A stretch of DNA of 63,507 nucleotides, the filler included, from Hausera hauseri (Eukaryota), in NCBI GenBank assembly GCA_046269625.1. It is 11 parts of 11 records of this genome, joined end to end, with 100 filler letters (N's around TTAATTAATTAA, not from the genome) between each part and the next. Parts side by side here need not be neighbours in the genome. Positions count along the whole stretch, not along the records: positions 53,419 to 59,436 come from JBJURY010152644.1; 10 more parts are not named here. The stretch is one strand, 5' to 3'. The notes under the pieces are model-generated. The model was not told the origin of the DNA, made no database searches, and worked only from the letters and a program-made list of their open reading frames with translations. The translations under genes were made by a program, and so were the position numbers. Shown piece by piece: positions 10,592-63,507 of the stretch (the first letter of the stretch is position 1; each line of letters opens with the position of its first letter).

Positions 10592-10678
10592 TGGCTATAT
10601 TTTTCATTATTTCCAAAATTACTTCAACGAATGGTAAGTTTTTTATTTGTGCTCCTCAAATAATTGGTTGATTTTTAG

Positions 10679-11290: not shown

Positions 11291-11299
11291 AGAGAAAAT

Positions 11300-14077: not shown

Positions 14078-14084
14078 GATACAA

Positions 14085-25514: not shown

Positions 25515-25614
25515 NNNNNNNNNNNNNNNNNNNNNNNNNNNNNNNNNNNNNNNNNNNNTTAATTAATTAANNNNNNNNNNNNNNNNNNNNNNNNNNNNNN
25601 NNNNNNNNNNNNNN
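25515..25614. other. Assembly linker
   Basis: 100 bp N-TTAATTAATTAA-N. Confidence 0.97.
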
Positions 25615-26715
25615 CTTATCTTCGTCTTCTATTGTGTTGGTTTTACTCTCTTTTAGTTTTGCTCTAATCTTCTGTTGTAACTTTTCAATTGTTTCTTCAG
25701 GTTCTGTATCAGTAGTTTCGTGTTCGTTATCTGTATCTGATATATTGCCTACTATGTCAATATTCTTTTTCTTCTGGCTTGACTGTCCTTGATTGGGGCA
25801 GGTACGAGCCATGTGTCCATATCTTTGACACGCAAAACACAATGGTTGTCCATCTTGGTTAATTGGGAGTTTTCTCATTGTAGATTTTTGAGGTTGATTC
25901 TGCCAATTATTCTGAAGTGGCTTTTGCCATGTAACTTTCTTCTGAGTCTGTTGCTCCGGTTGATTTTGCTGCTTCTGAAATGGTTTTGGGAAACTTTTCT
26001 TTTGTTGAAAATTTTTCTGTTTCTTTTCATCATTCTTAAAGGACTTTTTTGCATTTTCAAGTCTCTCATAATTCACTTCAATTTTTCTAGCTTTACTAAC
26101 AGCTTCTTTGTAAGTATCCGGATCAGCGACAATAATGTAATTTTGGATTTCCTTATTAACTCCATAACAGAACTGAGCTAGGAGGGCATCTTCCCTTATA
26201 TCATCATCTGCGTAGGCTCTCTGAGCCAGTTTCTGAAGGGCACATGCATACTCTTGCACGGTTTCGCCTTTCCTCTGACGTCTTCTATTGAATTCTCCAA
26301 TTCGACCCTTTCCTGACGGGTCTACTAAGAGCCTTTCCTCTAGAGCGTCTTTAAGGCTAGCCCAATCAGCCTTATCTTCATCTTCTTTTATTTGAGTATA
26401 AGCACTAAGTGCTATGCCTTTAAGATGTAAAGGGAGCCGTTTGGTCCTATGCTCATCTGTCCACCCATAACTTTCAGAATACATTTCGTATTGCATAATA
26501 AACTCTGCGTAATCTTGGTCCGGCTTTGCCTCGTATTTTTCCATGGGTAACACCATCGTACTGTTTAGGTTACTGCCTAAACTAGTTCCAAGTCCTGAGG
26601 ACATTTCGGGATTCTGATTTTCTAACTGAAGATTTTCGTCTGATTCGGAACTACTCCGTGCCGAATCAGTGCGCGAATTTATGTTAGTAGCGTGTGCTTT
26701 ACGTTTCTTACGCAA
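25615..26715 (-). CDS. gag: Gag of a second Ty3/Gypsy family (capsid + CCHC zinc knuckle); first ATG at 26604; open to contig end
   Basis: YGWTD..LPLHLKGIA, RRQRKGETVQEY...LQKLA, LLAQFCYGV, CFACQRYGHMARTC. Confidence 0.9.
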
Positions 26716-26737
26716 AGAATACGACGCCAGTGTGCCT

Positions 26738-26754
26738 CCTCACTCGGGGCACCA
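26738..26754 (-). other. Primer-binding site TGGTGCCCCGAGTGAGG (elongator tRNA-Met-like)
   Basis: Follows the LTR end ...TATCA after 1 nt; complementary to a tRNA 3' end CCUCAC(U)CGGGGCACCA. Confidence 0.8.
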
Positions 26755-26755: not shown

Positions 26756-27685
26756 TGATAAGTTTAGAAGGTGTAAAATTTATTTGGTCTTACGACCTTA
26801 AACTTATGCTATCAATTCTCAACTTGGGCCCTCTCCTTGTCCCAAGTTCGATTTAATTAGTTACAGTATTCGGCAGCCTGTGGGTCTGCCGAAATTTAGG
26901 AATTTTATTTAGTTACTTTTCCTTAATGTGTGAGTTCGGTCAGGAGGTACACCGACGTCACTCTCCCTGATTTATTATAATTTTGACAACCGACCTGTCT
27001 TAAAGGAAGGTATACCAAAAGGGACGTTTATAGTTTATTCTGAATTTTAGCTATTGCTATACAGTACACTTTACTTAAATTACTAATATAAATCAATAAA
27101 CCAAAAGATAAAACTAGACAATGAGAATTTTAATAAAATTGAATTTTATAAATTTTACATACAACAATCAAAATATATAACGAAACAAAAAAATAAAATA
27201 ATACGCTTACAGTTGTCATACGTAACGTTCATGATATAGCGAGGATCAGAATTGTAAAAATTTGTTGTGTCATAATGCAATCCATACCAGTATATATAGT
27301 TATCATTTAACAAAGGAAATTTACATAGTAAATAAAAATCAATTATTTTAAATTCAAGAAAAATAAAAAAAATCATTTTGTGACCACAAAAGAAATTAAA
27401 ATCAAGATTAGGTGAGTGTCTTTGTTTATTTTGTAATCACATTTCATTTAAATTGTTTATTTTTAGATCCGGATTCATTTCCGGTTTTCTTCGAAGATCC
27501 GGATTCATTTCCGGTTTGCTTGGACACACGAAACTTCACTTGCTTCTCATACACACACGACCAATCTCCGTCCTATTAACCGTGCGTGTGTAGCATTTTT
27601 ACTACTCCATGACTCATCCTCGAACCACTTCGTTTCTTTCCTTCCTGAGGGACGGGGTTGGCGCCATACGTTCACTTCTATCTAC
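26756..27685 (-). repeat. 5' LTR (~930 bp) of the second Gypsy family
   Basis: Ends in CA next to the PBS; outer boundary set by loss of similarity with 1-178; internal ~22-bp tandem duplication at ~27466-27520. Confidence 0.7.
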
Positions 27686-27939
27686 TTTGCTATCTATATA
27701 CTGACGTGTTTTTATAACCTTACAAACAAATGTGGTTATAAAATTTTGTAAACCTTCCCATTTTGTCCGGATTTTGGCACCGCGTCCTGCATATTACGTT
27801 GTTAAGAAAGTTTTAGCTTTATTTTAATTTTAACTGCTTTTTATATTTATTATATTTGTCATACTTTTTCAAAATGCAGTAACTTTACAGATATCAATTT
27901 GAAGCTCGTTTTCCGCTCTACCTATCTGTAATGTTACAT

Positions 27940-37174: not shown

Positions 37175-37920
37175 AATCGATAACCCAATTTGCTTTTGCC
37201 TTAAAGAAACTGGCAAACAGTTATGTGAGCACCTTAAGGATTTCAAACATAGCCAAGGCTAAAAATGAAGCAGAACGTGAAGCCGAAGAAAAGTCAAGTC
37301 CTCCCGATTTGGACGTCATGATGATGACGCAGTTACTAAATGGTATTTGGTCTAAAGACATAGTAAAGCAATTGATTCTAGAACGTCCCGAGAATTTTGA
37401 TAGGACGTTGCAATTAGCTCAGGACTTGGAGATGTCATAGGATAGATATGCCAGAAACAATGATAGATATGATCGAAATAATGGCCAAGCTGATCGAAGT
37501 CATAGGAATCGCAATAATAGAAATGATAGACGATATAATAAGAATTATGGAGATCTGAACAGGAATGATAATTGTGACCGTAGGAACGATCGATACAATA
37601 ATTAGAATTTTGGTCGAAACAGCCCATTTAGCAAATTAAACTACAATGCGGACAGATACGCAGACTGTCCAAAAAACTTTAATAATTAAAGTCGACAGAA
37701 GGACAATCGGAATTATGATAATCTCCAATATGGACAACCAAGACAGGCTCCACCGCAGCAAACTTACAATAGAAATCCGAGTAGATCTAAATCTCCATTA
37801 AATAAAAATGGCCGTCAAAGAGTTGGAAGAAATGGCAATTTATTCTGTTTTACATGTGGACAAGAATGACATATAGCGAGGTCCTGTCCGAATCCGCGAA
37901 GCGTCTCGTTTGTGGAACCC
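37175..37920 (+). pseudogene. gag: Gag C-terminal part (capsid C-domain, R/N/D-rich tract, CCHC knuckle)
   Basis: ITQFAFALKKLA, QLLNG..L...PENF...LQLAQDLE, CFTCGQE*HIARSC at ~37845. Confidence 0.8.
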
Positions 37921-40900
37921 AGCAAAATTAACGTAATTAGAAACGAAAATTTAGAAGCAATCTATGGCGTTTGTTGAGACACAGGCATGGTTATCGAGAT
38001 ACAATATTTACGACGTTTTTTGAAAAACCAGCCTGATACTGATGACCCCAAAGTTCTAGTGGCTAGAAACGAATATGAGCACAAATTACGATTAATGGAA
38101 GTCTATCACGGTCTACACAAGCCACAAACAGAATATAAACGTTTTATCGCCCCGCCAAGGCTTACTGATATGGCACGGAAGAAGAACCTTCCGAGGACAA
38201 GCAAAGAGTCAGGCGAAATGGAGAAACCTTAGACTCCGGATAAAATAACTATAGAGGTAGAGCCAGAGCATACTATAAAAAAGATAATTGAGGAAATAGA
38301 CGTCGAAGAGAAGGAAGAATTCCTAGAGCCGCTCATTCTCAAAATTACTAAAAACAAAGGCCGTAGTCTCTCGTTGAAGCGAAAACGCAAGGATAGATCA
38401 AGATCTCCCATGCGCAAGTCGAGCACAAAGAAAGAGGTCGAAATCGCACCAAAAAGCGACATCGAGTGCGCCTCAAACTGTCCAGAAATTAGTTTAGTTA
38501 CGCCCGGAGAAATAGAAGAACTGATAAAAATTGCAGATAAAATAAACGATGTATGTCCGATAACTACTAGTGAGGAGGAAACAGAACAAGAAGAGAAACT
38601 TGATCCTAAAAAGTGGAAAATCAGGCGCTCGTGGAAAAATTTCGAACAGTTAAAAAGCATGAGGGAAAATTGTCACAACTTAGAGGTATTACAACAGAAT
38701 TTAGAGAAACTCAAAGCAATAAGTGAACAAGTAGATATTTCGGGCAAAGAACAGCAGATTGTAGAGATACTGTATAAAAAGATGAAACTATACAGTGAAG
38801 GAAAGCTAAGTGAAGCCATAGATTTGGATCAACCCGATGAAGTTGCAAAAGAGACTCTGGCACAATGGAAACGCACATTAGAGCGCTGGATGAAAGTTGG
38901 GACGAAAAATCTAGAGACATGGGATAAGACCACCCAAGACATTGAAACTAGAATCAGCCAGGCTCAGTCGCTATTAGCAACATTAGAAGCCAACCCGAAA
39001 TTAAAACGAGCGGTACATAATCTAAAGCGTGTAATGGATAAAATTAGATTCATCATAGCTGAGCAACTAAAAAAGAAACCGGTTAAAGAAAGGACTGAAA
39101 CTGATCTGGAGATGTTGGGTATAGATTCCTTAGATATTCCGCCTTTAATGGAGATGATAAAAATCGTTTCTAATGCAACAAGGCAATATACCAGTCTGGG
39201 AAGTCGAAAAACTGTCGCAGATAAATAGTCTAAGGAATAGAATTATGTACCCAAATAACGATGAAACACGGAGAATAACTGTAGCTTGTGTCCTGGAATT
39301 TAATGAGCATGAAGAAGAGTTTGACTATGCCTGTCGGATCATTGATTTCATTAAAGGCCCAGATGATGAACTAGAAGACGCCAACAAGATGTCAAACAAA
39401 GCGATACTGGCAAAGCCAGATATCAGGAATCAAATGAATGAGTGGTCCAAAGTAATAACAAGTTTGAGCGAATTAATAAGTAGCCGGATGAACGAATTTC
39501 CGCAAAGCGAATGTAGAGTAAAGAGGCAGTTGAAGGAAGACGCCCAAAATTTAGATACGATGAAAGCAGAAATTGACATCCGAACGCAATTCAAATCCTT
39601 ACGCCTGTTGGATTTTATGGACAGGAAACAAGAAATAATGATGCTTGAGGACATATATAAAGTGATCGAAGAAACAAACTTTACACAAAAGCGGAATGAG
39701 ATTCATGACCTTTATCCAAAATTAAGAAAAGTCCGCCTAGAAGGAATTCAAAATTTGGCCACCAAGCCCATAGGAGAAATATCCGTTCGTGACCTTAAGG
39801 CATTAGACGTTTGTACCAATCACCAGTCAACCCTCGAAGAGATAGTGGCGTTTTTACATCAACCACAGGAAGGAATGCCTGGAGCCGACCGAAGGTATCA
39901 TATCGAATTAACTAAAATAAGGAATGACCAACATCTGAATTTTGAAGAAGTTAAGTTCATAAAAAGGCTACTTGATGAAATAGACCCCGACTCCAGAGTT
40001 ATTAATGAGATGTATGACCTAGTACAACTAATGGTGGAAATGGCAGAAATCAGCGATGAGAAATTAAGACAGCTGCTGCCACAGATACGACAAATTGAAG
40101 AAACTAATATCAAAACCAAACAGAGAGCGATGAAATTTGACGAACTAGCCAAAGAACTCAAACCGTATAAAGTTAAGTATGCTCTTACCGAAGCAGAGAA
40201 GGTTGACAAGTCGCAATTTGTGCATAAATGGCAACTGGACGTAGCTTCCGAGTTAACTAATTACCAGGAAAAGGGATTTATATCAGCCGAAGAATTATGA
40301 CAGCTGCTAACCGTACTACGTCAAACTTCTGGAAATTGATGCTGTTTCCGAACCACCAAAATGGTTATAATGCAACAGAAGCTACGAGAACTTAGAGCAA
40401 CCGTAGAGATTGCGGGTGCAAATAGGTCGACTGACACACTACCGAGAAGTTATTCATTACCGGATAATGAAAATGAGCCAGATTGGGAGGCATATCTAGA
40501 TGCCATGATGGCCGAAAATCCGAAAACCCCCGTGCGATTGAACGAAACAGAGGTACCGTCGCCGGACCAGAAATTCTGTGTAGAAATGCTCTTAGATCCG
40601 GTACAGACTGAAAATGAACTATTTAGGTTAATCAATGTGAACCTCACTGAAAAGCAATTAATACGGTTGGTTCCCACTTTAACCAAATTGGCCAGCGAAG
40701 GTACAGTTTACAGTGCCGCGCCAAAACTTTTAATCAAAGAATATGCTGAATTTCTAAGGACAAGGCCCGAAGAGGGAATTAAAGTAAAAATAACGGCAGA
40801 TTGGATGGATGAAAAGGAAGAAGAGTTCACTACGCATTCATCCGTGAAGGATGTATTACTATGGATAACGAATAACGGTTACACCCACGAGCTGAACTAT

Positions 40901-41718
40901 AGGCTATATTTTAGAGGAAGAATGCTTGACGAGTCGGAACTATTGATAGAAGTCGGAATCATTCCTGACGAGGTGAACCGGTTAGTGGTAACCATCGCTA
41001 ACAACGAGACAAAAGAAGAGGCTATAAGGAAGGCAAAGGCCGAACAGCCAATAGGACGAATAATAGGAGTCCGAGACGCGGTAGTGTATTTTGAGTACCT
41101 ACAGACAGATGAAGATCATGAGCAATACGATAAAAATTTGGTACCGATTAATGTCGGTATACTTGTTGTAACGAAACAAAAGCGACCTATTGGTAGGCCA
41201 CGGAAGATACGGGAAGAAATTGACTATAATGGAGACTTGATCAGAGAAATGGGGCAGATATCCATATTAAACTTTAGTGCAGATAATGAGGAACTGAATG
41301 AACTAATGAAAGATTGGATACGAATGGTAAATTACTCCAGTTTGAACGGTGATGTGTTAGATAAAAAAAGGCCATATTAAATGCCGCCAAGGCCATGAAA
41401 GGCATCCGGTGTAAATTATCTAAAAGTACCTTAAGCGACAAAGCAACGATCGAGAAAATTATGGTGGAAAATACCGTGGAGGAATTGAGAAAAGTGATGC
41501 TATATTTAGCCATCAAAACCAATCCGAATCGCAAAAACGAATTTAACAAGGCTGCCAGTTTAGCAAGGAAGGCTGCCAGGAAAATACCTCGAGAGGTGAA
41601 CTGGTCTAAGCTATTCGAAAAAGAGAAAGAACCTAAAGGAGAATTCTTCTTAGACATCAACAGGCTCGGTGACCTGCTACAAAACGTAGCCGGAAACCGC
41701 AGAGGAAACGAATCGATT
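37921..41718 (+). pseudogene. Region X: long charged helical protein segment with ubiquitin-like domain (40778-40996) and AT-hook-like motif (41180-41206)
   Basis: ORFs 37987, 38374, 39173, 40361, 41395; conserved in copies 2 and 5. Confidence 0.75.
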
Positions 41719-42815
41719 TGGCTAATCAACCTCTTGACCATTATGATGCTGATAAGACAGATAGGCGCCGTCACTGTACATGATTGTCACAGATTTAGAC
41801 TTGGCCAAAAATACTCCCTAATGGACTTGGAAATGTGCGAAGATGCGAGACCACACAAACTGGAAACAAAGGAAAAAAGTTACGTGTATTATACCAACAG
41901 CGCGAACTAATTACATTAGATAGAGTAGAGTGTATGTTGAGACGATCCCGAAGCATCTTCCACTGTGGACTAATACATAGACACTCGTCAATAATTAAGC
42001 CAACCATCCCCCTAATTCTAATGAATTTAGAGCGTCAACATTGCAAACAAACCAGAGAAACGGGAAGAATAAAATGGGATGGAATGGAATTAGAGATGCA
42101 ACAAGGGAAGATAATTAGAGTGTATAAGGTGGTAGCAGGAAGGCTGGACATGCACACTGGACATTGCCAAGGCACAGAATATGATACGGGAAAAGGATCA
42201 GAGTCAAACGTCGTGGTAGTGGATTTTTACGAAACCGAAATGCGCATACAAAAAGTGATGTTTCATAGCGTTACCAAGTTCTATACCGAGAACCACAAGT
42301 GTCGCGTTCAGGATGGCACATGTCCATTTCGAAGTTCAGTAGTAATTTGGGAATCACCAGCTAAAATTGATTGCAACTTCATTAGGATTAAAAAACTTAA
42401 ATTCAACGAGACGACCGGAAAACAGTACATAACTAGTACAGAAACCAACTCTAAAACACAAGAAGATGTAGCCGAACAGTCCACACCCACTATACGGATT
42501 TCTGATACTCATGGATTAAAATTTGTAAAGAAGACCATGCTCACCCGATGCCACGTAGTAATGTATGCTACCAAATATGAAGCGTTTTTTGTAGCCGAGA
42601 CTGAAATAAATGCCCGAACGTTCAAACTCAAGACTCAAGACATCCGAATTGAGGATTATGTGAAGAACAGAGACGATTACTTTTATTATAAAGGAAAAGC
42701 CGGAATAGCCGAGTTGTACCACAAGATGATAACAAACAATTGTAAATTGGACTTGGAAATCATGAGAACTAAATTAGCTCTAATCTACGCCAATCCGGAG
42801 CTGGCGTCACCAATA
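41719..42815 (+). pseudogene. env: Chuvirus-like glycoprotein (N-terminal half)
   Basis: WLINLLTIMMLIRQIGA/VTVHDC, RSIFHCGLIHRHSSI, GHCQG, NVVVVD, VVIW..DCNF, LYHKMITNNC. Confidence 0.82.
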
Positions 42816-46760: not shown

Positions 46761-48632
46761 TCAATTACTGCAACTGTTTTTTCCGATGATATGTGGAAGG
46801 TTCAAAACAGATTTATTAATAATTTCCATATTTATATCATGGTACAGACGTTTGCTGGGCCCATAACTAGCAAACATTATTCCACTTTTAATACCATTTA
46901 ATATTAATTTTGTTCTTCTTTTCGAGTCCCATAATCCCCATACCGGCTTCTTTTGTGTGAAACAAATGATCACTTGGGGAGAAAATCCCTCTCCACATTT
47001 ACCCTCTTCTGTATCCAACTTTATCTCACTAGACCCATCTATTTTGAATATCCCCATAATTTCCCCATATCCCTTATCCAAAATATATAAATATAAAAAT
47101 ACATCTACATTAAATTTGCCATCATACTTGACCATTGTTAACGCAGTGTCCCTCTGCGGGGGTATGAAACCACCTTTAAATTCATTAGTCGGTTCAAACA
47201 TTCTGATTTTAGCACACATACGATCTCCAGCGGCATTCATAAGAACGAAAAACCAACGAACAACCAGAATATTATTCATATAACATCTTGATACCTGAAT
47301 AAGTCTCTCTTGATGTACAACTTTAGATTGAATTTGATTTGTAATATTGGCTCTGTTGTCGTTTGAACCCGAAGTAACATATTCTTTCGTCAGCAACTCC
47401 GCATTTCGGTCGTTCTCACCCGTACACTCGTTTTTTTGAAATTCTCTGAATATTTTTAATGATAATTCGGAATATAATGTTTCAACGACGTAATAAAGGT
47501 AGTACCTGAATAAACCTTCTACGATTTTCTCGTTCGTATCAGCTTGTGTAATCCCTTCTATTCGGAAACGACCCATTATCAGTGATACCGGACAAAACAA
47601 TCGAAATAAATTCATACAGTGTATTTTTCCCGTGCTTCTCGACCCTTTGATCCCAGTATAATTAAGATCGGATAATATCGGTTCTAGATGAACAAGGATT
47701 GTATCCGAGACCGTCTCTTCGGCTTCTTCATGATCTATGGGTTTTGAATAGTATGCTTGAAACTCTTTTGGGATATATCTCCACCTTCTTATGCATATCG
47801 TATCAGTGTCCAAATAAATAGGGAACGAAATTAGTTTGAAATTAATGTATATAAAATGTCCTTCCATGATTGTATTATATATAGAACCTTTTCCTTTATC
47901 ATAGTATTCGTGCACACACATTAAAGCAGGTCCAACATAAAGGTGAAAGAAAAACGGATAGCGGTATATTTGGTTAAGGCAAAGAAACTCTTGCATGGTT
48001 TTCCAATGTAAATCAGGTTGTAGGTGTCGTTCAGCCAATTCAAAGTAATCACCTTGTAGATAAAGTATTTGGCCAATACATAGAAGTTTTTGCTTCTGTT
48101 TCCCATATGACTCAATTTGTATGTGTCTTTCAACCAACTCAAAACGATCTCTTTGTAGGTGTAGGAGTTTATAAACATGAAGAGTTAAATAAATTCTGTG
48201 AAATTCATATTTATCCATGATAATTTCATCGTGAACATAATTCTTTACTATCTCAAGAAATATCTTCTTAATTTCGTTGGATACATCAATTTCTATAGTC
48301 ATTAATCTCTGTTTAATACTTTCCATAAATGACCTATCATCCGTCTCCGATATGTTTTTTCTTCGTAACACATGTATTCTCGCTTCTGGAGATACCCATT
48401 CATCCAAGACAATAGGATTTAACGTTATGGTCTTTATCTGACCTCTATGAAATGAATGGATAACATTTTCAAAACATCTGAGTCTTCGTGACTCACTGAT
48501 TTTGAACATATTTTGCATTAAGTCGTTTAGGAATTCATTATTCCTTCTTTGAAAATTAAAATTAAATTTCAAATATGAATTTTTAATTTGCATCAATGCC
48601 AATTCTATAGCTATTGCTATAGTATATTCCAT
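46761..48632 (-). CDS. Intact 623-aa hypothetical protein, intronless, with internal 33-aa tandem repeat
   Basis: ATG-to-stop ORF of 1872 bp in very AT-rich DNA; no recognised domain. Confidence 0.7.
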   Translation of the reverse strand: MEYTIAIAIELALMQIKNSYLKFNFNFQRRNNEFLNDLMQNMFKISESRRLRCFENVIHSFHRGQIKTITLNPIVLDEWVSPEARIHVLRRKNISETDDRSFMESIKQRLMTIEIDVSNEIKKIFLEIVKNYVHDEIIMDKYEFHRIYLTLHVYKLLHLQRDRFELVERHIQIESYGKQKQKLLCIGQILYLQGDYFELAERHLQPDLHWKTMQEFLCLNQIYRYPFFFHLYVGPALMCVHEYYDKGKGSIYNTIMEGHFIYINFKLISFPIYLDTDTICIRRWRYIPKEFQAYYSKPIDHEEAEETVSDTILVHLEPILSDLNYTGIKGSRSTGKIHCMNLFRLFCPVSLIMGRFRIEGITQADTNEKIVEGLFRYYLYYVVETLYSELSLKIFREFQKNECTGENDRNAELLTKEYVTSGSNDNRANITNQIQSKVVHQERLIQVSRCYMNNILVVRWFFVLMNAAGDRMCAKIRMFEPTNEFKGGFIPPQRDTALTMVKYDGKFNVDVFLYLYILDKGYGEIMGIFKIDGSSEIKLDTEEGKCGEGFSPQVIICFTQKKPVWGLWDSKRRTKLILNGIKSGIMFASYGPSKRLYHDINMEIINKSVLNLPHIIGKNSCSN

Positions 48633-49134
48633 ATCTACAGATATCGCTTATTTAATTGTATAAATGTACATTGATTTGTACATAATAAATGTAATATTAA
48701 TCATAAATGGGAATTCCCAACTTTTACGTGTATAAATACGTACATCCCGACATAATTTTCAAACTTCCTTGTTGAGTAAAAACTCATGTTAGTATCAAAC
48801 AAACAAAACATTGATTTAATAATGTCCATTTTTCTATTGTAGATCCGAATAAAGACAAAGCTGTCATATTTAAATTTTCCAATTGCGTTAATTTCTTTAT
48901 TGACAAACGTACCTTCATCTTTCTGGTCAACACTATATTTTGCACGTATCTCTCGGTGGTAATTTCGCCTTCAATTTTTAATTTGGATTCCTCCTCTTAT
49001 TTCTTCTCAGAGTTTATTTCCAATTACGTTTCCACTTTTTACCAAATGGACTCTTGTTGGAATCGATGGCAAGTCATTGTTAAGTTCCTCTTCACTTGCC
49101 GTACTCATCGTGAAATCTAATAGACCACCAGGAT

Positions 49135-49234: not shown

Positions 49235-50990
49235 GCAAGTTGAAGTCCGGGTATTGTAAAACTGGTTCGCGTGTTAGAATCTTCTTCATTTCGTCGAAAG
49301 CTTTCTGTTTGACATCCGATTATTTCCATTTAATTCCTTTCTTAAGTTGGCGATACAAAGGTGCATTTACTATCGAGTTGTCTGGCACATAAGAGGCATA
49401 ATATCCACATAAACCTAGTCACTGTCTTAACTTCCGATTTTATGGCTCCATGTCATCTTATATGTTGTCCAATAATGATTTTTCTGGCACCGATCCTCCT
49501 TCTCCAACTATATGGCCAAGGTTGGATACTGCGTTTTGAGCCCCTTTGCATTTCTTTGGGTATAATTTTAATCTTAATTGTTTCATTTGCATCATTATAT
49601 GCTCGACATCCTTTAAATGTTCTTCTGTTTTTGACGCTATTATTACATAATCTAAGTACACAAAAGCGTTGTCCTGTCCCATTAACATTTTATTCATCAT
49701 TCCTGTAAAAATGGTCGGTCCGGTAGTAATGCCGAACGGCATAACGTTAAATTCATAAACAACATCACGTGTTTTGAATGTCGTTTTATAACGGCCTTCG
49801 TCCTCGATTTCTACTTGCCAATATCCAGATTGTAAATCCAGAGTGGTAAACCATTTTTCACCTGAAAGCTTGTCTAGAGCTTCGTTTGCTGATGGCAGTG
49901 GGAAAGAATCCTTCAACATAAGACTGTTCAGTGTTCTGTAATCAATACAACATTGATGTTTTGTAGTACTTTTCTTTTTAACCATAAAGACTGGCAAGTA
50001 CCAAGATTTGTAGCTGGGCTTAATTATGTCTGCATTTAGAATTCGTTCAACTTCTTTTGTTGTCTCAGGTCTTTTGTTATCTTGTTGTCTCAGAGAATGA
50101 GATGGAGGTTACCATTTCGGCATCTTCTGGTCCTCAAGATCTATTTTCGGGCTTTTTCTTAAGCGGAATAATCAGTCTTAAAGTCTTTGCTCTACAAATA
50201 TCCTCGTCGTCTTTAGCAATAATAAATTTATAGTAGCATAATAATTCGTAGAATAGACAATAAGACTCGTGTGAAAACGTAGTTTCAACATGAGGTGGAA
50301 TTTCAGCATATTTGAAAGGTTTTTTTCAACAGTTATGGACGACACTCTATAAGTATTTTCCAAGGTAGTATAAGCATGTAGCTTGACTGGGTCGGTGCAT
50401 TATTCGCTATTCTGATCGGCACACGGTCTGACTTTACTCTTGCCAATATATTATTGATTACTATATTCGGAATTAACGTTTTCTTTGGTTCGAAATATAC
50501 TGGTTGGTAATAATCTTGTTGAATTTGTGCATAAATTATTATCTCTGTTCTCGATGGAATATTTTTGTCTATTGGAATCCACACTTCTCCAAATTCCCTA
50601 TCTTTAGCAGTTTTTACGCTTTTTATTGGTTTAATCTCTATTAGTTTTCCTGCTTGCATGTCGATTGCTACATTTGGTAGTATTTTAGCAGGTCGCAACC
50701 TAAAATTACATCATCAGTTAATTGTTCCATAATTGCAAATTCATAACAGTAAAACAATCCAAGTATATGAACCTCTGGCTTCCATTTGACTATCGGTTTT
50801 GACATTTGGCCAAAAGCGCCTGTGCTTTTCGGGATCTATTGTTGATGGTGGATACAACTGTCTTCTTAACGTTTGAGGAATTGAATCATTCTTGATGTAA
50901 GACGTCTGAGAACCTGTGTCTATTAAGCACAAACTTCCCAATCTTCTGTAGTGACTTTGGCAAAGGGTCTCCCTTCTATTTCTGTTCCGA
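49235..50990 (-). pseudogene. pol: Protease + reverse transcriptase
   Basis: GRPFAK, LIDTGSQ, CIDYRTLN, FTTLDLQSGYWQV, MPFGI, YLDY (mutated YLDD). Confidence 0.92.
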
Positions 50991-51455
50991 AGCAATTTGA
51001 TGCGGCCTTTGGGCGTTTAATTACCGATATTTTATGGCCGTTACTTCTGATTTCTGAGGAGGATACTATGCATTCCGACAGTTGTCTTAGTTCTTCATTT
51101 TGGTATAATTCGTTATTTTCAGTATTCGAGTTTTCCTTTTCATGAATACTAATTAGTGGTTCTCGGTTGTTCGTATGTGGTTCTATATTTTGAAAAGTTT
51201 GAAACCTTTGATTTCCCCAGACAGTTGGTCTGATCTCTATATTTCGAGGTTCTCTTGGAGAGTATAAGGTTCTAGGACCGTCCGTAGGCTCTCGGTAGAG
51301 CATTCTTCGTAAGATTCCATATCCTTTCATCCCTTTGTAAGGGTCTTCGAGATTAATCGTTCTCTTATAGATTTCTGTTTGATATGAACCCTTTGATCGC
51401 TTATCACAGTTTTCGTAGACTTGAGCAAAAGGGGGTAGCATGGGCAATGGTACCT

Positions 51456-53212
51456 TTATGATGGAATATGTTTTATGTCTATCAATTTTAAATATGGTTT
51501 CTCCGAATTATTCTTTCGTGTTTTGGGCTTAGGAAGCTTTCGCTTGTACAAGAATATAGGTCTCCTTTTCCGTTTGTGATTATGGTAGCCTACATTACAT
51601 TCTACGTCAATTTTCCATCTGCTTTCTTCGTATGCCTTTAAAAACTTTTCGAAAGGCGTTATGATCGCAGTCAAGATTATACATGAGAATACAGCCAATG
51701 TAAACATTTCGTATCCGTTAAATACTACTTCGACTACTGCCTTAATTAGTTGTATTAAGAAATATATGGCTGGAAATTCAGATGCGGCTTGTCCAAAAAT
51801 TAAAAATCTTCCCCAAATTTTATATAGTATTTCCGTGGTTACTCAATGATAATATTTTATACCGAGCAAGGATTACCATTTGGTTTGGTATCTGGTATCA
51901 TCTAATACTGAGGCAATGGCTCGATATAAGTCGAATCCTTTGTCGTAGAAAAGGGAGAAATTGTCTAAAGGCTTCAATTTCCTTTTGTCTATATATACCT
52001 TTCGATGATTCATCCTGGAATTTATCATCCGTTATTCGTCTTACGAGGTTAGCTCCTGTTAACTTAATTGGAGCGGCAGTAATACCTCCATTTGGTAAAC
52101 TTACTCAATGCGTTTCGCTACGTCTAAACATTGGTTTTCCTAAACTTGTTTTACACTGTTTAAGGATTGTTGGCCGAGTCGCATTATGTAACAGTACTCT
52201 AGTAAGTGGCATGGCTAACCGAGTGGTATTCTGGCAATTCTTGTATGCACCGTTTTTCTTCGACAGTAATTGATACATCTCTTTTCTCACATTTGTAAGT
52301 CAATAAGACTTCGCCGGTAACTCGACCAAAAATTTCTTCTCCTATAGGAATTATTGGTGATGCTAACTCAGGATTATCAAAGATGAGAGCTAATTTTGTC
52401 CTCACAATTTCCATGTCTAGTTTACAATCGTGCGTTATCATCTTGTGGTATATATATGCTATTCCAACTTATCCTTTGTAGGAAAAAATAATCGTCTCGG
52501 TTTTTCAAAAAATTTTCGACACGAATGTACTGCGTCTCTAGTTTGTAAGCTTTCGTACTTATTTCCGTTTCTGCGACGAAAAATGCTTCATAGATAGCGG
52601 CAAACACCACTACTTTGCAACAGAAGATCATTTTGTTTTTAATAAATTTTTGTCCATGAGTGTCAGAGATTAATACAGTAGGTGTAGAGTGTTCTGCTAC
52701 ATCTCCGCGTCTCCTTGTATTGCTGTCGAATTTATTCACATATCACTTACCGGTAATTTTATTTCCTTGATTTTAATAAAATTACAATTTCTTCCAGAGG
52801 GAGGTTCACATATTGTAACTGAACTTCTGAAAGCACACATGCTATCTTGTAAATAAAATCTTTGATTCGCGGTATATATAGTTTAATGACGCAATGAAAC
52901 AATGCCTTCTGTGCTCGCATTTCTATTCTTAGAAATTTACGACCATTACGTTTACTTCTATTACTTTACCGGCGTCATACTCTGCACCATTACAGTTTCC
53001 ATTATGCATGTCTAACCTTCCGACTACTACTTTATATGCTCTAATTATTTTTTTGTCTTTTTTGTCTCCAATTTGTGCGGTATGGCGTCTTCACACATCT
53101 CTAAGTCCATTAAGGAGTATTTTTGTCCGAGTTTAAATTTATCGGAGTCATAGTCTGTGACGGCACCTATCTGTTTTACTAACGCTATCAAGGTAAGTAG
53201 GTTGATTAACCA
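51456..53212 (-). pseudogene. env: Chuvirus-like glycoprotein (internally deleted)
   Basis: WLINLLTLIALVKQIGAV, YSLMDLEMCE, GEVLLTYKC, CIQELP, TM-region FTLAVFSCIILTAIITPF. Confidence 0.8.
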
Positions 53213-53318: not shown

Positions 53319-53418
53319 NNNNNNNNNNNNNNNNNNNNNNNNNNNNNNNNNNNNNNNNNNNNTTAATTAATTAANNNNNNNNNNNNNNNNNNNNNNNNNN
53401 NNNNNNNNNNNNNNNNNN
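53319..53418. other. Assembly linker
   Basis: 100 bp N-TTAATTAATTAA-N. Confidence 0.97.
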
Positions 53419-53759
53419 ATATTGTTGATTTTGTTTCTATATTCCGAGTTATTCTTGGTGAGTGCAATATCCCGTGGTCATCTTTCGCTTGTCTTTGGTT
53501 AGTGATATGCATTTTCTTTAATACTCCATATTGTTTTGTTCCTTCAGAAGAATCTTCATAGCTGAAGGGTTTCTGATAGAATGCCGATCTATATAACATC
53601 ATCGATGTTTTGTCACAGTCCTCGTATATCGGAGCCGTTGACGGCATGATAGGTAAGGGTGCTATAATTACGGAATACATTCTATGTCTATTTTGTCCAA
53701 GGATTGCATCTTCTCCCTTAGGCTCATCATCATCTGAATTATTTCTTCGTGTCATTGGT

Positions 53760-55683
53760 TTCTTATCCTTGTGTTTTAATTGAAATATGGGTCTTGCTCG
53801 ACGTTTATGATTATAATAGCCGACCTGGCGTTAAACGTCATTTTTCCATCAAATCTCTTCATACGCTTTAAGCATTTTACCAAATGGTGTGATAATTGCA
53901 GTTAGTATTTTGCATGAAAATCCAGTTAACGTAAATATGTCGTATCCATTAATTACTGCTTGGATGACGGCCTTAACCATCTATATCAGAAAATATATTG
54001 CTAAGAATCCAGATGTAGCTTGTCAAAAAATTAAAAATCTTCCCCAAATTTTGTAAAGTATTTCCGTTGTTACTCTCTAATAATGGTCTACGCCAAGTAA
54101 TGATTTCTATTTAGCCTGATATCATGTATCATCTACCATAGCTCGATTTAATTCATGAGTTTGCTGTCGCGGAAAAGCCAGGAATTGTTTGAAGGATTCG
54201 ATTTCCTTCGGTCTGTATATGCCTTTCGAGGAGGTGTCTTGGAATTTATCGTCTGTAATCCCTTTTGCAAGATTAGTCCCTGTTAATTTATTTGGAGAGG
54301 CAGTAATACCTCCATTTGGTAACCTAACCCCCAATCCGTTTTGCTACGTCTAAACATTGGTTCACCCAAACTTGCTTTGCAATCCTTCAATATTGTAGGT
54401 TGTGTTGCGTTGTCTAGCAATACTCTAGTGAGAGGCATGGCTAACCGTGGGGTATTATGGTAGATTACAGGGAGTTCTTGTATGCACCGTTTTTCCTCAA
54501 CGTTAATTGGTACATCTCTTTTCTCGCATTTGTATGTCAGTAAGACTTCACCTGTAACCCGATCAAAAATTCCTTCTCTCATGGGAATAATCGGTGAGGC
54601 TAACTCCGGGTTTGCATAAATGAGGGCTAATTTTGTTTTCGTGATTTCCGTATTTAATTTGCAGTCATTAGTTATCATTTTGTGGTATAGTTCGGCTATT
54701 CCAACTTGTCCTTTGTAATAAAAATAATCATCTCGGTTTTTCAGATAATCTTCGATTCTAATATCTTGCATTTCTAAGTTGTACGTTTTTAACTTTATCT
54801 CCGATTCTGCGACGAAGAACGCTTTGTAGTTAGCGGTAAACATTATCACTTCATACCATGAGATCATTTCCTTCTTTATGAATTTCAATCCTTGTTGATC
54901 CGAGATTAATATCGTAGGTGTATGATGCTCTGATACATCTTCACGTGCTCTTGAACTGATGTCGGATTAGTTTACGTATCGTTTTCCGGTGGTTTCATTA
55001 AATTTCAATTCCTTAATTTTAATAAAATTACTGGCTTTTCCGGTGGGCGGTTCCCATATGACGACAGAACTTCTGAAGGCACAGGTTCCGTCTTACATGT
55101 GACACTTCTGATTCTTATGATATAATTTAGTGACGCTATGAAACATTATCTTTTGAACTCGCATTTCCGATTCGTAAAAATCTACTACAACTATGTTTGC
55201 TTGCAATACTTTTCCGATATCGTATTTCGTTCCACTACAATGCCCGCTATGCATATCCAACCTTCCGGCTACTATCTTTTATGCTCTGATTATTTTTCCG
55301 GGCTGCATTTCTAATTCCATGCTATCCCATTTCAGTCTTCCGGTTTCTCGGGCTTGCTTGCAGTGTTATCTTTCCAAATTCATAGGAATCGGAGGGGTTG
55401 TCGGTTTAATTATTGAGGAGTGTACGTGTATTAGTCCACAGTGAAAGATGCTACAAGATCGTCTCAACATACATTCCGTGCCATCCAAAGATATCAATTC
55501 TTGTTGTTGGTATAGGAAATAACTCTTCTCATTTGTTTCCAATTTGTGTGGTCTGGCATCCTTACATGCTTCTAAGTCCATTAGTGAATATTTTTGTCTA
55601 AGCTTAAATCTATCACAATCATAGACGGTAACAGCACCCATTTGTTTTAATAGCATCATTAGGGTGAATAAACTGATTAACCA
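53760..55683 (-). pseudogene. env: Chuvirus-like glycoprotein
   Basis: WLISLFTLMMLLKQMGA/VTVYDC, SIFHCG, LYHKMITNDC, GEVLLTYKC, CIQELPV, PLTRVL. Confidence 0.82.
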
Positions 55684-58600
55684 ATTTGATTCATTTTTCC
55701 TGTTGTTATTATCCCTTGTCGTCAGGTTCCGTATGATATCTTCGAGTCTATTGTTACCACTTCTCTTGTCTTCTTCTTTGTCAAACAGTTTTGGCCAATT
55801 TACTTCACACGGGAGTTTCCTAGCTGCTTTTCGTGCCAAATTTGTGGCTTGGTTTAATTCATTTTCTCGATTGGGATTTGTCTTAATTGCCAAGTACAAT
55901 AACACTTTTCTTGGCTCTTCTATCGTATTTTCCACCATAATTTTCTCAACTACTGCATCGTCAGTTAGACTACTTTTTAACAGTTTGAAATGCGAACTTT
56001 TCATTGTCCTGGCTGCATTAAATATTTCCTTTTCTTTGTCATTTAATGTATCTCCGCGGAGACTCGAATAATTTACTATACGTATTAAATTTTTCATTAA
56101 CTCGCTTAATTTTTTATTATCTGTACTAAAAGTAGGAATCGACATCTGCCTTAACTCTCTAATCAGTTCTCCATTATAGTCAATTTCTTCTCGAGGCTTC
56201 CTAGATCTGCCGACTGGGCGTTTTGGTCTTGTGGCATTGGTTGGCATTCTACTCAGCGGTACTAGTTTCTTGTCATATTGTTCCTTATCTTTATCCGTTT
56301 GTAAATACTCGAAATACATTGCCGCATCTCGTACTCTCATGATTTCTCCTACACATTGTTCCGTTTTAGCATTCCGTGTGGCTTCTTCTTTCGTCTGTTC
56401 ATTGGCTATTATTACTATTATACGATTCGTTTCATCGGGGATAATTCCGACATCAATTAACTGTTTTAAATCGTCGAGTATTCTTCCTCTAAAGTAGAAT
56501 CTGTAATTTATCTCGTTTGTTCCACCGTTCTTTAGTAACCATTCTCTTACGTCCTTAACGTAGGAATAAGTAGTCAGCTCACATACTTTTCCTTCCATCC
56601 AGTCAGATGATATCATTATTTTCAGCACTACTTCAGGTTTAGTTCTCAAAGTATTTGCATACTTCTTTATCAGAAGTTTTGGCATTGTGTTGTAAATTGT
56701 ATTCTCGCTATATAATTTAGTTAAGGTCGAAATACGTTGTCTGGGCTTGCTTTTAGTCATATTCACATTAATTGATTCCATCAAGTCCCTTTCAGTTAAC
56801 TCTGAGTCTAGGAGCATTTCCACATTGAATTTCCTGTCCTGCGGATACATTTGTATTTCATCTAGGTGTACTGGTAGTCCGTAATCTACAAGAGCTATGT
56901 TCGTTCTTTGCACATTTTCTCGAACTTCTTTCAGTCTTGGTTGTATTTCTTTAATCTGCGTAGTTCGGAAACCTATTCCGTTTCCACATGCATATTGAAT
57001 CATTTTCAGTAATTCGCCTAACTCGTTAGAATTGATGAATCCCTTTTGATAATAATCGGTTAATTCGATAATTACATCTCTTTGCCATCTTTGTACAAAT
57101 TCTCTCTTATTTTTTATTTCTGATTCCGTAAAAGCGTATTTGTTCTGGTAACCTTCAAACTCTTTTACTAGTTTATGCAGTCACGTTGCTCTTTGTTTTG
57201 TTTTGATGCATGTTTCTTCAACTTGTTGTATTTTGGGCATTAATTGTCTCATCCTTTCATCATTGATTTCCGCCATTTCTACCAGTAAATAAGCTGGCTC
57301 ATACATCCCATTTATAGTTTTTGAGTCGGGATCCATTGCATCCGACAATTACTTCACGAACTTGTGTTCCTGAAAGCTAAAATGTAGGTCGTCTCTTATT
57401 TTTGTCAACTCGGTATGAAAATTCTGAACTGATCCAGTCATCCATTCCTGTGGTTTATGCCAGAATTTTATTGCGTCTTTTAACGTATCTCGATGTCCGG
57501 GACAGATGTCTAAGATTTCAATGTTTTGGGCGGAGATCTTGTCGATCGGTTTTTCCGTTAAGTATTAGATTCCTTCTAGTCGAGCAACCTTCAACTTTGA
57601 AGTTACATTGTAAATCATGTTCCGTTTTTCCGTGAAGTTCGTCTGTTTGATTAATTTATAAATCTCCTTTAATATCTACGTTTCTTGTTCTCTTTTCATA
57701 AATTTTAACCGTCTTAATGCTTCGAAATGGGTGCGGATATCTATTTCTATTCGCATTGTGCCTAGATCATGTGCACTTTCTTCTAGCTGCTTCTTTACCA
57801 TTGGGTCGTTTTGCGGAAATTCTTTTTTGCGGTCTTCTACTGATTTGCTTAGTCGGTTTACTAACTCGGACCATTCCGGCAATTGATTTGCGATTACTGG
57901 TTTCACCATTATAGCCTTATCTAACATCTTATACGCATCGTTTAACTCATCGTCCGGTCCTCTTAGGAAATTCATAATCCAACCGACATAACTAAACTTG
58001 TCCTTATATTCGTCCAGTTCTGCGATACAAGCTTTTATTATATATTTCGTTTCTTCGTTATTCATGAACATGATCCGATTTCTTAAACTACTGATTTGTG
58101 ACCTTCTTTTATTCTCCATTTTGATGCGGCTCTTTAAGTCCGCACATTGTCTGTTTTCGAGGAAGGCAATTTTTATCATCTCCATTAAGTGAGGAATATC
58201 TATCGGGTCTACACCCAATATCTCTAAATCGATACTACTTCGATCGCTAACCGGTTTTTCTCTAAGGCGATTTATCATTATATAACGTATTTCGTCCATC
58301 TTACGTTCTACGTTACGGGCTACTCTCTTCAACTTAGGATTAGCTTCTTAGATAGATAGCAGTGTTTGCGCTTCAGCAACTTTTACACTAATATTATTTT
58401 CGTCTTTATTCCATCCTTCCGAAAATTCTACTCCACTTTTAATCCACGACTCTAATTCGTGGTTCCATTTTATCAACGTATCTCGTGGCGCCTCTTCCGG
58501 TTGTCTTAATTTAATTGCTTCGTCAAGTATCCCATCACTCCACAATTTTTAAATTTTGTATAATTTCTCCGCAAACTGTTGTTCTTTACCAGATATGTCT

Positions 58601-59436
58601 GTTTGTTTACTGATCTGTTTAAACCTCTCTAAATTGTGTCGGAGTATTTCTGGATCGTGACATCTAATTCTTGTCTTCTTTAATTCATCAGCATTCTTCC
58701 ATAAACGTCGAACTTTCCATTTCCTTGCATCAGGATCATTATTATCGTCCGTTTCTTCCTCACTAGCGGGAAGCGGACAAATTTCATTTATTTCGTCATT
58801 AACATTTATCATCTCGGGTGTCTCCAACACTTCTGGAATCCCTATAGGCGTAGTAGAAATATCTGAGGATGAGTTTGCGGTGTAAATATCTTCTCTTCTT
58901 TCTATGTTCTTTTTAATGGGCAAGCGTGAACGAGTTTTAGATTTTCTCTTAGGCGATGGGCTTCTACCTGTATTCTTCGTTATCTTGAGAACTAAGGGCC
59001 CAAGAAATTCGCTTTTGACTTCATCCGTTTTTTCATCTGGATTATGCGTCACGACTTCTATTTCTGCGTTTAAGTCTACATTTTTAGATGTCGATGGATT
59101 CTCCGATTGTGCTATTCCTTGTGGAATAGACTTCTTACGCGCCATATTAGTATTATTTGGTGCTAATGCCCATTCTTCTTCAGTTTGTGACTCTCTTAAT
59201 CCATGATAAACTTCCATTTGTCGTAATTTCTTTTTATATTCTTTTCTAGTGTTCATTACTTGAGGATTAGTAGTTTCACTTAGATTTCTTAAAGATCTGC
59301 GTAAATCTTGCATTTCGATAATCAGGCTTATATCTCCTCGTTTGCCATATATGGCTTCTAATTTATTCTTGATCATACTTGTTTTGTTTGGTTCAGTAAA
59401 TGTGACACTACTAGGATTTGGGCATGACCTAGCAAT
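55684..59436 (-). pseudogene. Gag end + region X with ubiquitin-like domain (56407-56625)
   Basis: Homologous to 37860-41718. Confidence 0.75.
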
Positions 59437-60388: not shown

Positions 60389-63300
60389 TTAGAATGCCAC
60401 ATATCCGTGAGGTAGTGTGTGGATTCTATCGCTCAGGATCTGCATCTTGTTATCCATCCAATCTAGGCCTTTCTTGTGCAATGTTACTGTTTGGATTTTA
60501 TGATCCCTATATTGGATCCTTCGCATTTCCGATATAATGTTAGTCTACTCATGCTGAACTGTCACATAATCTTCAAAACTGATCTTCTTGGCAAGTGTAG
60601 CCCTTTGAACGCCCTTGGCTCTCTTTTTGATCTGACCACATAAATCTGAAGCATATATTTTTGACATGAGAGCTACAAATCTCGAGATTATTGCTCTGTT
60701 CATCTCGTTTTCGAATTTCCCAAGGATTTTCTTGTTGGCAATTGAATAGTTGGGATGATCCTTTGGATAGTTAAAGGTATCCATGTGTTGAGCCAATTGG
60801 GCAAAGTCCTTATAAATATCATCTGCATGGATCTGATAGTAAAACTATCAGTATCCATGTACATCAGCTGCATGGATTTGAATGTGGGGACCATGACGCC
60901 ATAATGGAAATTGTACATCAAGGTTTTGACAGGTCGAGGATTGTCATACCCACATATATCGGCTTGTTGAATACCAATGCTGCTTTCAGCATATGAATTC
61001 CTACCAAATTCTCAGCATATATGGCTCTGCTATGGAAGTTAGGCTTAGCAATGAGCTTCTTTGCCCGCTTCCAGTTACATACCAGATCGATGTTGACCCT
61101 TTTGCGGATATTCTCCATGGTCTTGCCAAAAACACTGTTGTTATATAGTTTGAATTGATCATTCTCAAAGTCGTTCATGGCTATAGTGCGCAGCCTCGCA
61201 TTGCGGTCTATGTATGACTGCAGCTACATGGACTGGCGAACTGCAGGGCTCTATGGATCTTGTTAATACGAAGTCCATATCTAACTGCCGGCTGAAGATT
61301 AATGTAGTGGATTACATACCTCGCCCTATTACCCAAATGACAGAGCAGCTTTCTATACTTTCCATGGGGCGGAGGCCTGTTTTCAGGCAGAAAAGGTAGC
61401 TATTGATGCCTTGCGTGGATAGAAGCCGGATATTCCTTATCTACCGCCAGTATGTATCCCTCATCTCCAGTGGTATCCAGGTCCAGTATAGGGATGTTTT
61501 CAGGATTTTCAGCCCATTTGACGTTATCATATGGCAATGGGACTATCATTGCCCATCCATACAAGTTGTTGGCATTCAGGTATGATATATATGATAATTC
61601 CTTTGTTGAGTCGTATTCGGTCATATACTTGCTGTCGGCCTCACGATACCGGTTAATGGCCTGGCATATTCCGCCTTTAATGCATCTCTCTCGATCATAA
61701 AGATCATGTTGTAATCCTTAATTATCTGCTGCCTAATACCAGTATGAGCTGGATCCAAAGCATGACTCTTCATTGTAACAGCCCTGAAACTCTCAAAGAC
61801 ATCTGTCAACAGAAGCACGTCCGTCTTGAGTTAAATATCACTGTATTCTCCTATTGATCGGCTTTGGAATGCCTGCCAGACGTTCTGAGCATTCTGGTAG
61901 TCAGCATCACTTATATCACAGTCTGACAGCTGGCTATAAAAGCCCTATTTGTCCGGCAGTGAGATCTCATCCAGTGCTTCCAATGAAGTTATACAGTCAT
62001 AGGGAAACACGCCTTTCCTCTTGACAAGGTCAAATGCAGTGGGGAAGAATCGCTTTGTCTCTTTGAGTTTTTCTGCATGCAGGTTCTTTACTAAACTGTC
62101 CAGTGAAGACGATATGAAGCGGAAACTGTCTACTAAGCAAAGCCTAATTTTCCCAACATACTTCGTAAAAGTGATGTATTTTTTCTCACTTTTGGGGATC
62201 ACATCTATATTACCATCAGTGTTGCCTAATTCTCGGATTATAAAATGAGAATCATAACCACTGAAATTATGGAACACTACAGGCACATATCTGCACGTTT
62301 TGAGTCCTAGATTGCAGTTGTTACATGCTGCGCCTCGATATGCACCTGTAAAATGGCAGTGATCATTGACTTTCCAATTTTCCTTCGTAAAAGACTTGTC
62401 GCACAAGTAACATGTTTTTGCCTTGCGCCATTCGTCTTTTTGCATTCACGACATGCTCATATTATCCTTATGCTGCTAAAGCATGTTTTTAAGCTTATCA
62501 GCTATGTTTTCAAGTTGTTTTATGAAATGTGCTGCTGCGCCTGGACCTCTAAATAGATATGGTTCAATGTCCAGTCTTTGGCATACATGCAATATTATGA
62601 GAGTTCATGATATTGGTATGCCGTTGTACTGCTGTGTTGAGGACTGGGAGTGCAGCTGTAAAATGGCCGGAGAATATCTTCAAAGTCGCAATAGACGACA
62701 GTTGAGACCTTGAGCTTCTTCTTGAACTCCTTGAATTCAATATAGGAATCCTTGGGAAATTCTGGCCTGATAAAGTAATTGTTGTTGCAGTACATCTTGT
62801 GCTGTGCAAGCTTTCCACTGCAGTATCACCGCTAAAATGGGACAAGCGTTGTTTACATATTTCTATTTGTCCATGATGATTCATAATTTGGAATTTGACT
62901 AGACGCTCATACTTTTTTATCCAAACATAATGTTTCTTTTCCCCGTCGTCTAGTAGGAGCAGATCTCTATGATCTTCCAATTCAGTATCACATATTTGCA
63001 GGGGATAGAATTTGTCTACATCATCCAATCCAATGATGTTGATGGATATATTGTTGAATCGACTGAACTTCTTGACTTCATCTATGGATAGCGGGAACTT
63101 AATACATTGGAAGTCATTGTTGTGCTGCAGACCATTATGTAGCCAAATTCAATCTGCTGCATGTTTCTGATCCATTACAAGTTCACAGAGAATGGAATAC
63201 ATGAAACGCTTGTTGTCACTCTTATGGACATGCTTTTTTATTACCCATCCAATCAGGGAGTTGAATATATGAACTACCCCGCATTCGGGAGAACCTGTGC

Positions 63301-63507
63301 ACATACACAAGCAATTTCTTGATGGTTATCGGAGTCCATTTGCTCTTCTTATCATGGCTGTCCTTAGCCTCGTGGATCAGCTTCTCTTGCGCATCTTGCA
63401 TCCATTCTGCTATATTGGGTGTTTTCCAATATGGGTCTATTTCTGGTTTTGAAGGCCCTTTTGGACTCTTCGCCATCAACATTGACGTATGTGGCCTCAA
63501 GTTTCAT
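60389..63507 (-). pseudogene. Polinton/Maverick-type protein-primed PolB, copy C (endonuclease VII-like domain through C-terminus)
   Basis: RGSSYIQLP, DHCHFTGAYRGAACNNCN, RKGVFPY, ANNLYGWAM, KLYNNSVFGKTMENIRKR, YMDTDSF, LGKF.NE, KRAKGV, TLPHGY. Confidence 0.93.

Follow-up and report, generated by a model that had tools for sequence, protein, structure and literature searches.

The 17 codons at positions 55633-55683 (minus strand) of the window, the 63,507-nucleotide stretch of Hausera hauseri DNA analysed here, encode WLISLFTLMMLLKQMGA followed directly by VTVYDC. From its sequence context, this stretch is likely the signal peptide of a captured glycoprotein, acting inside a polyprotein. We give a probability of about 0.72 to the reading that the family is one of decayed Burro-like Ty3/gypsy elements that encode gag, a region X, the glycoprotein (G) and pol in one register, with the stretch as G's own signal and pol in the cytosol. 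The window's own copies are dead, and their value lies in the family.

The window consists of short contigs joined by spacers, and the family was read from five fragments (c1-c5; Table 1) of one LTR-element family, which overlap at 64-77% identity. The ten gaps (e.g. 10492-10591 and 53319-53418) are 100-base N spacers with a central TTAATTAATTAA; as they join separate contigs, neighbourhood across them is meaningless. Pieced together, the copies give the order gag zinc knuckle, region X (about 1,250 codons), PF24664 glycoprotein, linker, protease-reverse transcriptase-RNase H-integrase (PR-RT-RH-IN), second membrane protein and accessory ORFs, with an internal length of about 14 kb or more. 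Both the Ty3/gypsy pol order and an upstream gag with a CCHC knuckle are present. The c3 zinc knuckle is broken by one stop, and the end of the knuckle recurs at the start of c5. All copies are broken, the complete span from gag to pol is found in none of the five, no copy spans both element ends for an LTR comparison, and the 3' end of the c1 contig (9900-10491) is matched nowhere else in the window. Elsewhere in the window, three decayed, Polinton-like copies of a type-B DNA polymerase that carries an endonuclease VII-like domain are found at 10600-16050 and 60860-63507, and a 628-codon open frame at 46761-48647 (minus strand) has no Pfam match.

Table 1. Positions in the window of the element copies and of the features read from them.
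Feature	Copy	Position	Strand	Basis or remark
Fragment of element family	c1	1 to about 10,000	+	
Fragment of element family	c2	21113-25514	+	
Fragment of element family	c3	37175-42815	+	
Fragment of element family	c4	53318-49235	-	
Fragment of element family	c5	59436-53419	-	
Gag C-terminal part	c3	37175-37900	+	Zinc knuckle about 37846-37887; same frame as X
Gag zinc knuckle end and region X	c5	55684-59436	-	One frame without frameshift; 6 point stops
Ubiquitin-like domain in X	c5	56400-56640 (limits approximate)	-	Profile A1 against PDB sequences
Helical region just before signal, weakly Bcl-2-like	c5	55770-55970 (limits approximate)	-	Profile A2
Predicted internal signal sequence, directly before G ectodomain	c5	55633-55683	-	12-residue hydrophobic core and KQMGA
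Homologous stretch	c1	236-286	+	Copy alignment; upstream replaced by LTR-like piece
Homologous stretch	c2	24108-24158	+	Copy alignment; cleavage region decayed
Homologous stretch	c3	41719-41769	+	Copy alignment; open X codons upstream
Homologous stretch	c4	53162-53212	-	Copy alignment; contig end 35 codons upstream
Chuvirus-type (Monjiviricetes) fusion glycoprotein ectodomain	c5	54070-55632	-	PF24664; interrupted by stops and by one private insertion
H2, predicted membrane anchor of G	c5	53975-54049	-	c1: 1877-1951; family-wide
H3, second hydrophobic segment, likely amphipathic on cytosolic face	c5	53870-53938	-	c1: 1991-2056; family-wide
Basic tail and linker	c5	53419-53830	-	Open without stop to contig end
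Linker	c4	50926-51507	-	Open up to protease start
Pol, order PR-RT-RNase H-integrase	c1	2750-6096	+	DTG at 2806; several frameshifts
Second membrane protein after integrase	c1	6120-7450	+	Hydrophobic start about 6126-6161, anchor 7289-7360, basic tail

The hydrophobic core of the stretch is 12 residues long in all five copies, within the range of 7-15 for a cleavable ER signal peptide, and the stretch is the top-scoring hydrophobic segment of the 1,701-codon c5 frame (dG +1.4, the next segment +3.5, on an approximate Hessa-type scale, as for all dG values here). Across the copies its dG is +0.6 to +1.9, and its dN/dS of 0.09 (10 copy pairs) indicates purifying selection; that the stretch is a chance hydrophobic run was rejected. 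Alanine occupies position -1 in four of the five copies, with I or M at -3 (M in two of the five), and an alternative A-x-T cleavage site is present in four. The n-region is weakly basic, K+R exceeding D+E by 1-2 residues in three of the five. The preliminary description had placed the stretch and its neighbouring motifs, preceded by a stop-free X, in every copy. The stretch itself is there in all five, but VT.YDC is exact in two, and MML and the G-A ending are each kept in four; upstream codons are open in c5 (499), c3 (118) and c4 (35, to the contig end), but c2 meets a stop after 42. In c1 the upstream part has been replaced by LTR-like sequence matching 27561-27627, so c1 cannot attest X in frame. 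A spliced leader at this place was rejected, the sequence matching an LTR-like stretch in the opposite orientation to that stretch's gag. This LTR-like sequence of a second family (1-190 and 27561-27700) seems to have entered c1 immediately upstream of the signal, in the opposite orientation. The gag of the second family, at 25570-26739 (minus strand), shares 68% identity, across 330 columns, with the start of the database protein P0008; since P0008 continues through gag, X, signal and G in one protein, the genome holds a second family of such build.

A full HMMER search with 338 residues of the c3 G gave 84 matches, and nine of the best 12 exceed 1,000 residues. A protease motif lies downstream of G in 10 of the 84, and a zinc knuckle upstream combined with a protease downstream, in one protein, in 5. 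Pfam, run on 25 of the 84, found PR, RT, RNase H and integrase downstream of G in P0005, P0006, P0013 and P0019. Some relatives' records may represent spliced gene models. P0006, which has 2,627 residues, lies on a contig of 9,084 bases and is annotated as bacterial, is unlikely to be one, because it was called by a source that labels it bacterial. The record names P0006 a protein of a Flavobacteriaceae genome bin, probably through bin contamination. In a quick tree of 50 G sequences, the window copies and all 12 embedded proteins fell into one group of 16 rows (SH-aLRT 93, which is below the starred level). Several tandem protease-like domains, some after integrase, are seen in P0005, P0010, P0011, P0020 and P0086; in P0086 there are up to 7 Pfam protease stretches, and another two hydrophobic segments, as a pair, separate its G from RT.

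In the free G proteins, the first Y/F-D-C falls within the first 37 residues, behind such a stretch, in nine of the ten listed. The stretch is kept in 12/12 embedded relatives, 150 to 1,366 residues into the protein; a small residue occupies -3 in all 12 and -1 in 11 of them. Position 6 of the PF24664 profile falls on residue 502 of P0001, which is two residues into the stretch. Because free G proteins carry it N-terminally, embedded relatives keep it and PF24664 starts inside it, we read the stretch as G's signal, now internal. The internal signal first proposed is well supported by the codon register of the copies and by the uninterrupted relatives; the stretch is present in 5/5 copies, is under purifying selection and lies where free G proteins have their signal peptide.

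For the use of this signal we infer the following route. Gag-X would be made in the cytosol; the signal would insert N-in, C-out at the ER; and signal peptidase would cut after A, or two residues later after T. Gag-X would then stay anchored by the signal remnant, G would fold in the lumen, and H2 would stop transfer. H3 would lie on the cytosolic face; the tail, linker and PR-RT-RH-IN would be in the cytosol and be set free by the element's own protease, and a second signal after integrase would export the second membrane protein. The proposed 1:1:1 gag:env:pol stoichiometry would hold at synthesis only, as single-ORF elements reach Gag excess by Pol degradation or splicing: in the available parts of the respective papers, Tf1, with a single ORF, is given a 26:1 ratio of Gag to integrase through degradation (PMC7175516), and BARE splices a Gag-only RNA (PMC3735527). 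We propose tentatively that signal peptidase may cut Gag from Pol co-synthetically, with no Gag-Pol fusion, leaving Gag-X on the ER; that Pol may enter the particle tethered to the inner tail of Env; and that the second signal may add the second membrane protein.

A signal more than 1,200 residues into the chain may be skipped part of the time, and the alternative that survives best, though we consider it rather unlikely, is that this deep and marginal signal is used on part of the chains only, so that cytosolic full-length Gag-X-G-Pol brings Pol to the capsid. The dG of +0.6 to +1.9 and the weak n-region charge speak for such leakiness, and in LTR elements Pol is normally packaged within a Gag-Pol fusion, according to the available text of PMC7175516. 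The relatives' signals, however, are stronger (down to dG -2.3), and a cysteine-rich G that stays untranslocated, its anchor free, would probably be degraded. Leaky use is in part compatible with the threaded polyprotein: cleavage would part Gag from Pol, and Pol would therefore be packaged either via the Env tail or via leaky use of the signal.

G might instead be made mainly from its own spliced or internally started message, its signal being an ordinary N-terminal one and the in-frame fusion serving Gag-Pol only. Retroviruses make Env by splicing (PMC10309623, in the part available), and an in-frame ATG lies 18 codons upstream of the signal in c2 and 15 in c1. This ATG is absent there from c3, c4 and c5, and that of c1 adjoins the LTR-like insertion; no in-frame ATG upstream of the signal is common to the copies, its position differing where it occurs. 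The search for a splice acceptor before G that the preliminary description had called for found no pyrimidine-rich acceptor (best AG 0.64 pyrimidine, in one copy only): the sequence upstream of the signal is purine-rich in the window copies and has no acceptor common to them. Gag-Pol readthrough would in any case still need to pass both signal and anchor. We consider a separate message for G improbable.

Pieces of four copies matched PF24664 (Monjiviricetes_fusion; best E 3e-24, Pfam). Majority cysteines number 14 in the 523 G codons versus 9 in the 1,287 upstream codons, whereas G shows no enrichment of N-glycosylation sequons (2 in 523 versus 6 in 1,287 codons), the counts of which do not separate lumen from cytosol. 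The topology first outlined ran from a single G anchor through a basic tail, RNRKRKRR, into pol. The basic tail is present, but H3, between anchor and tail, had been missed; RNRKRKRR is the wording of c1 (2111-2134), with HKRKRR in c4 and HKRRAR in c5; and about 200 linker codons separate the tail from the protease. The count of membrane passes that had been suggested as a check gives two hydrophobic segments after the ectodomain, of which H3 is likely amphipathic, judged by scores and conservation. In all ten pol-linked relatives the dG of H3 is above 0 and worse than that of H2, with a proline in 10/10 and a central K/R in 8/10; among 26 other relatives it is below 0 in one only. P0006, absent from the relatives' H3 alignment and scored separately, gives +1.6. 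In the window copies H3 scores +0.3 (c1), -1.0 (c4) and +2.5 (c5), with a central lysine in c1 and c5; against the pattern, the c4 H3 scores better than the c4 H2 (+1.6 to +2.1). In an AlphaFold model of P0015, a single 56-residue helix leads to a turn, after which H3 forms two short helices; the model is silent on membrane position. In a fold search it matches HSV-1 gB at E 1.7e-4; matches to the protease domain took up the fold searches with this model, and H3 was not placed on gB. In P0019 and P0020, additional hydrophobic segments precede the signal.

Following pol (in c1, RT about 3634-4209, the RNase H region, and integrase by Pfam at 4996-5640), the second membrane protein of c1 has a strong anchor (dG -3.9) and a terminal GLYDSI tyrosine motif, and no clear Pfam family was found for it (6120-7450). 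It is off frame from integrase in c1 and in frame in P0005, P0006 and P0086, in which, as in c1, a second signal, an ectodomain and an anchor follow integrase. Behind c1 there are also a RING-finger accessory ORF (Pfam, E 5.8e-5) and a 275-codon accessory ORF without a Pfam match; accessory ORFs lie at 7837-8664 and 9473-9925 (plus strand).

This arrangement bears on whether H3 could be a second membrane pass, leaving pol luminal, or whether H2 could be luminal and H3 the sole pass, which would keep the topology first outlined. The near-zero dG of H3 is compatible with insertion, the signal itself scoring +0.6 to +1.9; the c4 value of -1.0 points the same way, and the densest basic cluster comes after H3, not after H2. 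We nevertheless regard an inserted H3 as quite improbable, given its positive dG in 10/10 pol-linked and 25/26 other relatives, its central K/R and its proline. Moreover, a second signal, ectodomain and anchor after integrase require integrase to be cytosolic, a parity argument, and RT and integrase could not work in the lumen. On scores, conservation and parity, pol likely returns to the cytosol, provided that H3 is not a second pass.

The continuity of the reading frame was followed from gag to protease. Over the 1,701 codons that lead from the knuckle into G, c5 meets 10 stops in its frame, versus 186 and 151 in the other frames. At four c5 stop positions, among the best-supported differences listed, at least 96% of the aligned X1 depth has another letter, and these four are therefore read as private decay. 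There are 50 in-register stops, with one codon, inside G, common to two copies. Third codon positions are the most variable in 27/27 windows from zinc knuckle to protease, and every region as far as the linker for which dN/dS could be computed gave 0.09-0.25 (0.13-0.25 for the knuckle end and region X); dN/dS is usable up to the linker, the PR and RT values being invalid with the register uncorrected for a 1-base PR indel. At this indel the register shifts; that part of PR is covered by c1 and c4 only, of which c1 reads through. Alignment of the five copies shows that, outside the tail-linker stretch, each frameshifting indel belongs to a single copy wherever at least three copies overlap. The gag-X junction is open in c5, X-G in c3 and c5, tail-linker in c5 and linker-PR in c4, and neither a shared slippery heptamer nor a 2A motif was found across the window copies. 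One continuous ORF, as first described, is well supported by the codon register in the copies together with the uninterrupted relatives.

The weak point of the one-frame reading is the tail-linker junction, where c1 and c4 are both off frame, agree modulo 3 and differ from c5; continuity with separate losses in c1 and c4 is favoured by 2 parsimony steps only. Of the contigs aligned in two runs (698), which may include the window's own source and count as further copies rather than as independent support, 4 of the 16 listed bridge this place without a gap, 45 align with a substitution, no indel reaches 2%, and 52 stop matching at 53709-53710. That pol is reached by a programmed frameshift here, making Pol a minor product, is highly improbable: the c1-c4 agreement and the 52 contigs that cease to match would suit it, but c5 is open through the junction, in the best alignments c1 and c4 lost the frame independently, no slippery site or stop is common to the copies, contigs bridge the place gap-free or align there with a substitution and no indel reaches 2%, and ten relatives run from G to protease in one frame.

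Region X holds a ubiquitin-like domain: profile A1, built from two window copies and four relatives, matched PDB sequences of the ubiquilin-2 UBL (E 1.9e-5) and ISG15 (E 5.5e-5). Profile A2, from the helical region just before the signal, matched Bcl-xL weakly (E 0.012-0.04), carried mostly by the relatives' GGW motif; the relative P0004 has a Pfam Bcl-2 match just before the signal (E 9.6e-4), and a structural model of this domain was uninformative (pLDDT 46.8). Ubiquitin-like and Bcl-2-like folds are cytosolic, which fits the N-in orientation of the predicted signal. A profile of the X copies matches the parts of P0008 and P0006 that precede G, and homology of X is visible only via relatives found with G: word-indexed searches with X gave 3,480 and 7,317 candidates, none at E <= 0.001, and a search of Atlas gave no match. 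MATH, BIR and ankyrin had no Pfam match in the X pieces scanned, the copies being fragments; P0086 has ankyrin repeats. Between the ubiquitin-like and Bcl-2-like regions, at 56190-56225 (minus strand), lies a basic GR(P/S)R/K motif, echoed in P0005, P0008, P0011 and P0086, which we take to resemble an AT-hook.

The structural polyproteins of flaviviruses and alphaviruses combine a cytosolic capsid, an internal signal, a luminal glycoprotein, a stop-transfer anchor and a cytosolic continuation. The likeness is an analogy of working only, and the element is not a member of these groups: they have class II fusogens and RNA-dependent replication, whereas here G is class III-type and a reverse transcriptase is encoded. 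Closest in build is the planarian Burro (GYPSM1), whose polyprotein, in the available text of PMC6431247, comprises Gag, a CCHC knuckle, a coiled-coil, ubiquitin/SUMO-like and BCL2-like domains, an in-frame env and PR-RT-RH-IN; its env matches mononegavirus fusion glycoproteins, and its accessory ORFs have ubiquitin-related domains. Shared with it are env in frame between gag and pol (here pieced from overlapping copies), a mononegavirus-type env (here PF24664) and a ubiquitin-like domain upstream of env. The window copies, which are fragments, gave no match to the MATH, BIR and ankyrin domains of Burro, and their pieced length is about 14 kb or more, versus up to 25 kb (25-30 kb class) in Burro. 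The present elements are Burro-like in build, as compared by described architecture, and are not filed as Burro.

Chary and Hayashi describe GAG-ENV-POL errantiviruses with an HSV/gB-type env in Nematoda, Bryozoa and Platyhelminthes, the env ectodomain lying between a signal peptide and a TM or between two TMs (PMC13524379, main text as available). Those elements share the Ty3/gypsy pol and a gB-type env before pol; that text does not mention 'polyprotein', threading or Pol packaging, although its Figure 5A may show topology, and elements as long as the present ones would not pass its size filter (10 kb at most). One Gag-Pol-Env polyprotein is encoded by Atlas virus and other Belpaoviridae, in Atlas virus with internal membrane segments and predicted cellular cleavage (bioRxiv 10.1101/2021.11.23.469668), and in Anakin a chuvirus-type G was captured by an LTR element (PMC7642597), both as far as the available text goes. 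Atlas resembles the present family in having an envelope protein inside one ORF with internal membrane segments; in Atlas and Anakin, however, env comes last and Gag-Pol is joined in the cytosol, whereas here env lies between gag and pol, and they are BEL/Pao rather than gypsy elements.

In-frame gag-env-pol order is already published (PMC6431247, in the part available), which lowers the surprise of finding it here. The available text of that paper has 0 occurrences of 'signal peptide' and 'membrane topology', and we found no statement on signal-peptidase threading of a gag-env-pol element in the portions of the literature examined; the figures and supplements of PMC13524379 may bear on topology. 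The gene order is thus known, and its consequences for assembly are seemingly unaddressed in those portions. On the tentative reading in which no Gag-Pol fusion is made, the signal remnant would double as the tail anchor of a Bcl-2-like domain, membrane assembly would be obligatory even for intracellular copying, and the family would assemble by a flavivirus-like logic that has not been described for a reverse-transcribing element. The signal, the anchor and the second signal, all conserved, are small, separable segments that bear on assembly. Should the signal be cut efficiently, the rule that Pol is packaged as Gag-Pol would fail in this family, and Env would be a required scaffold rather than an optional add-on.
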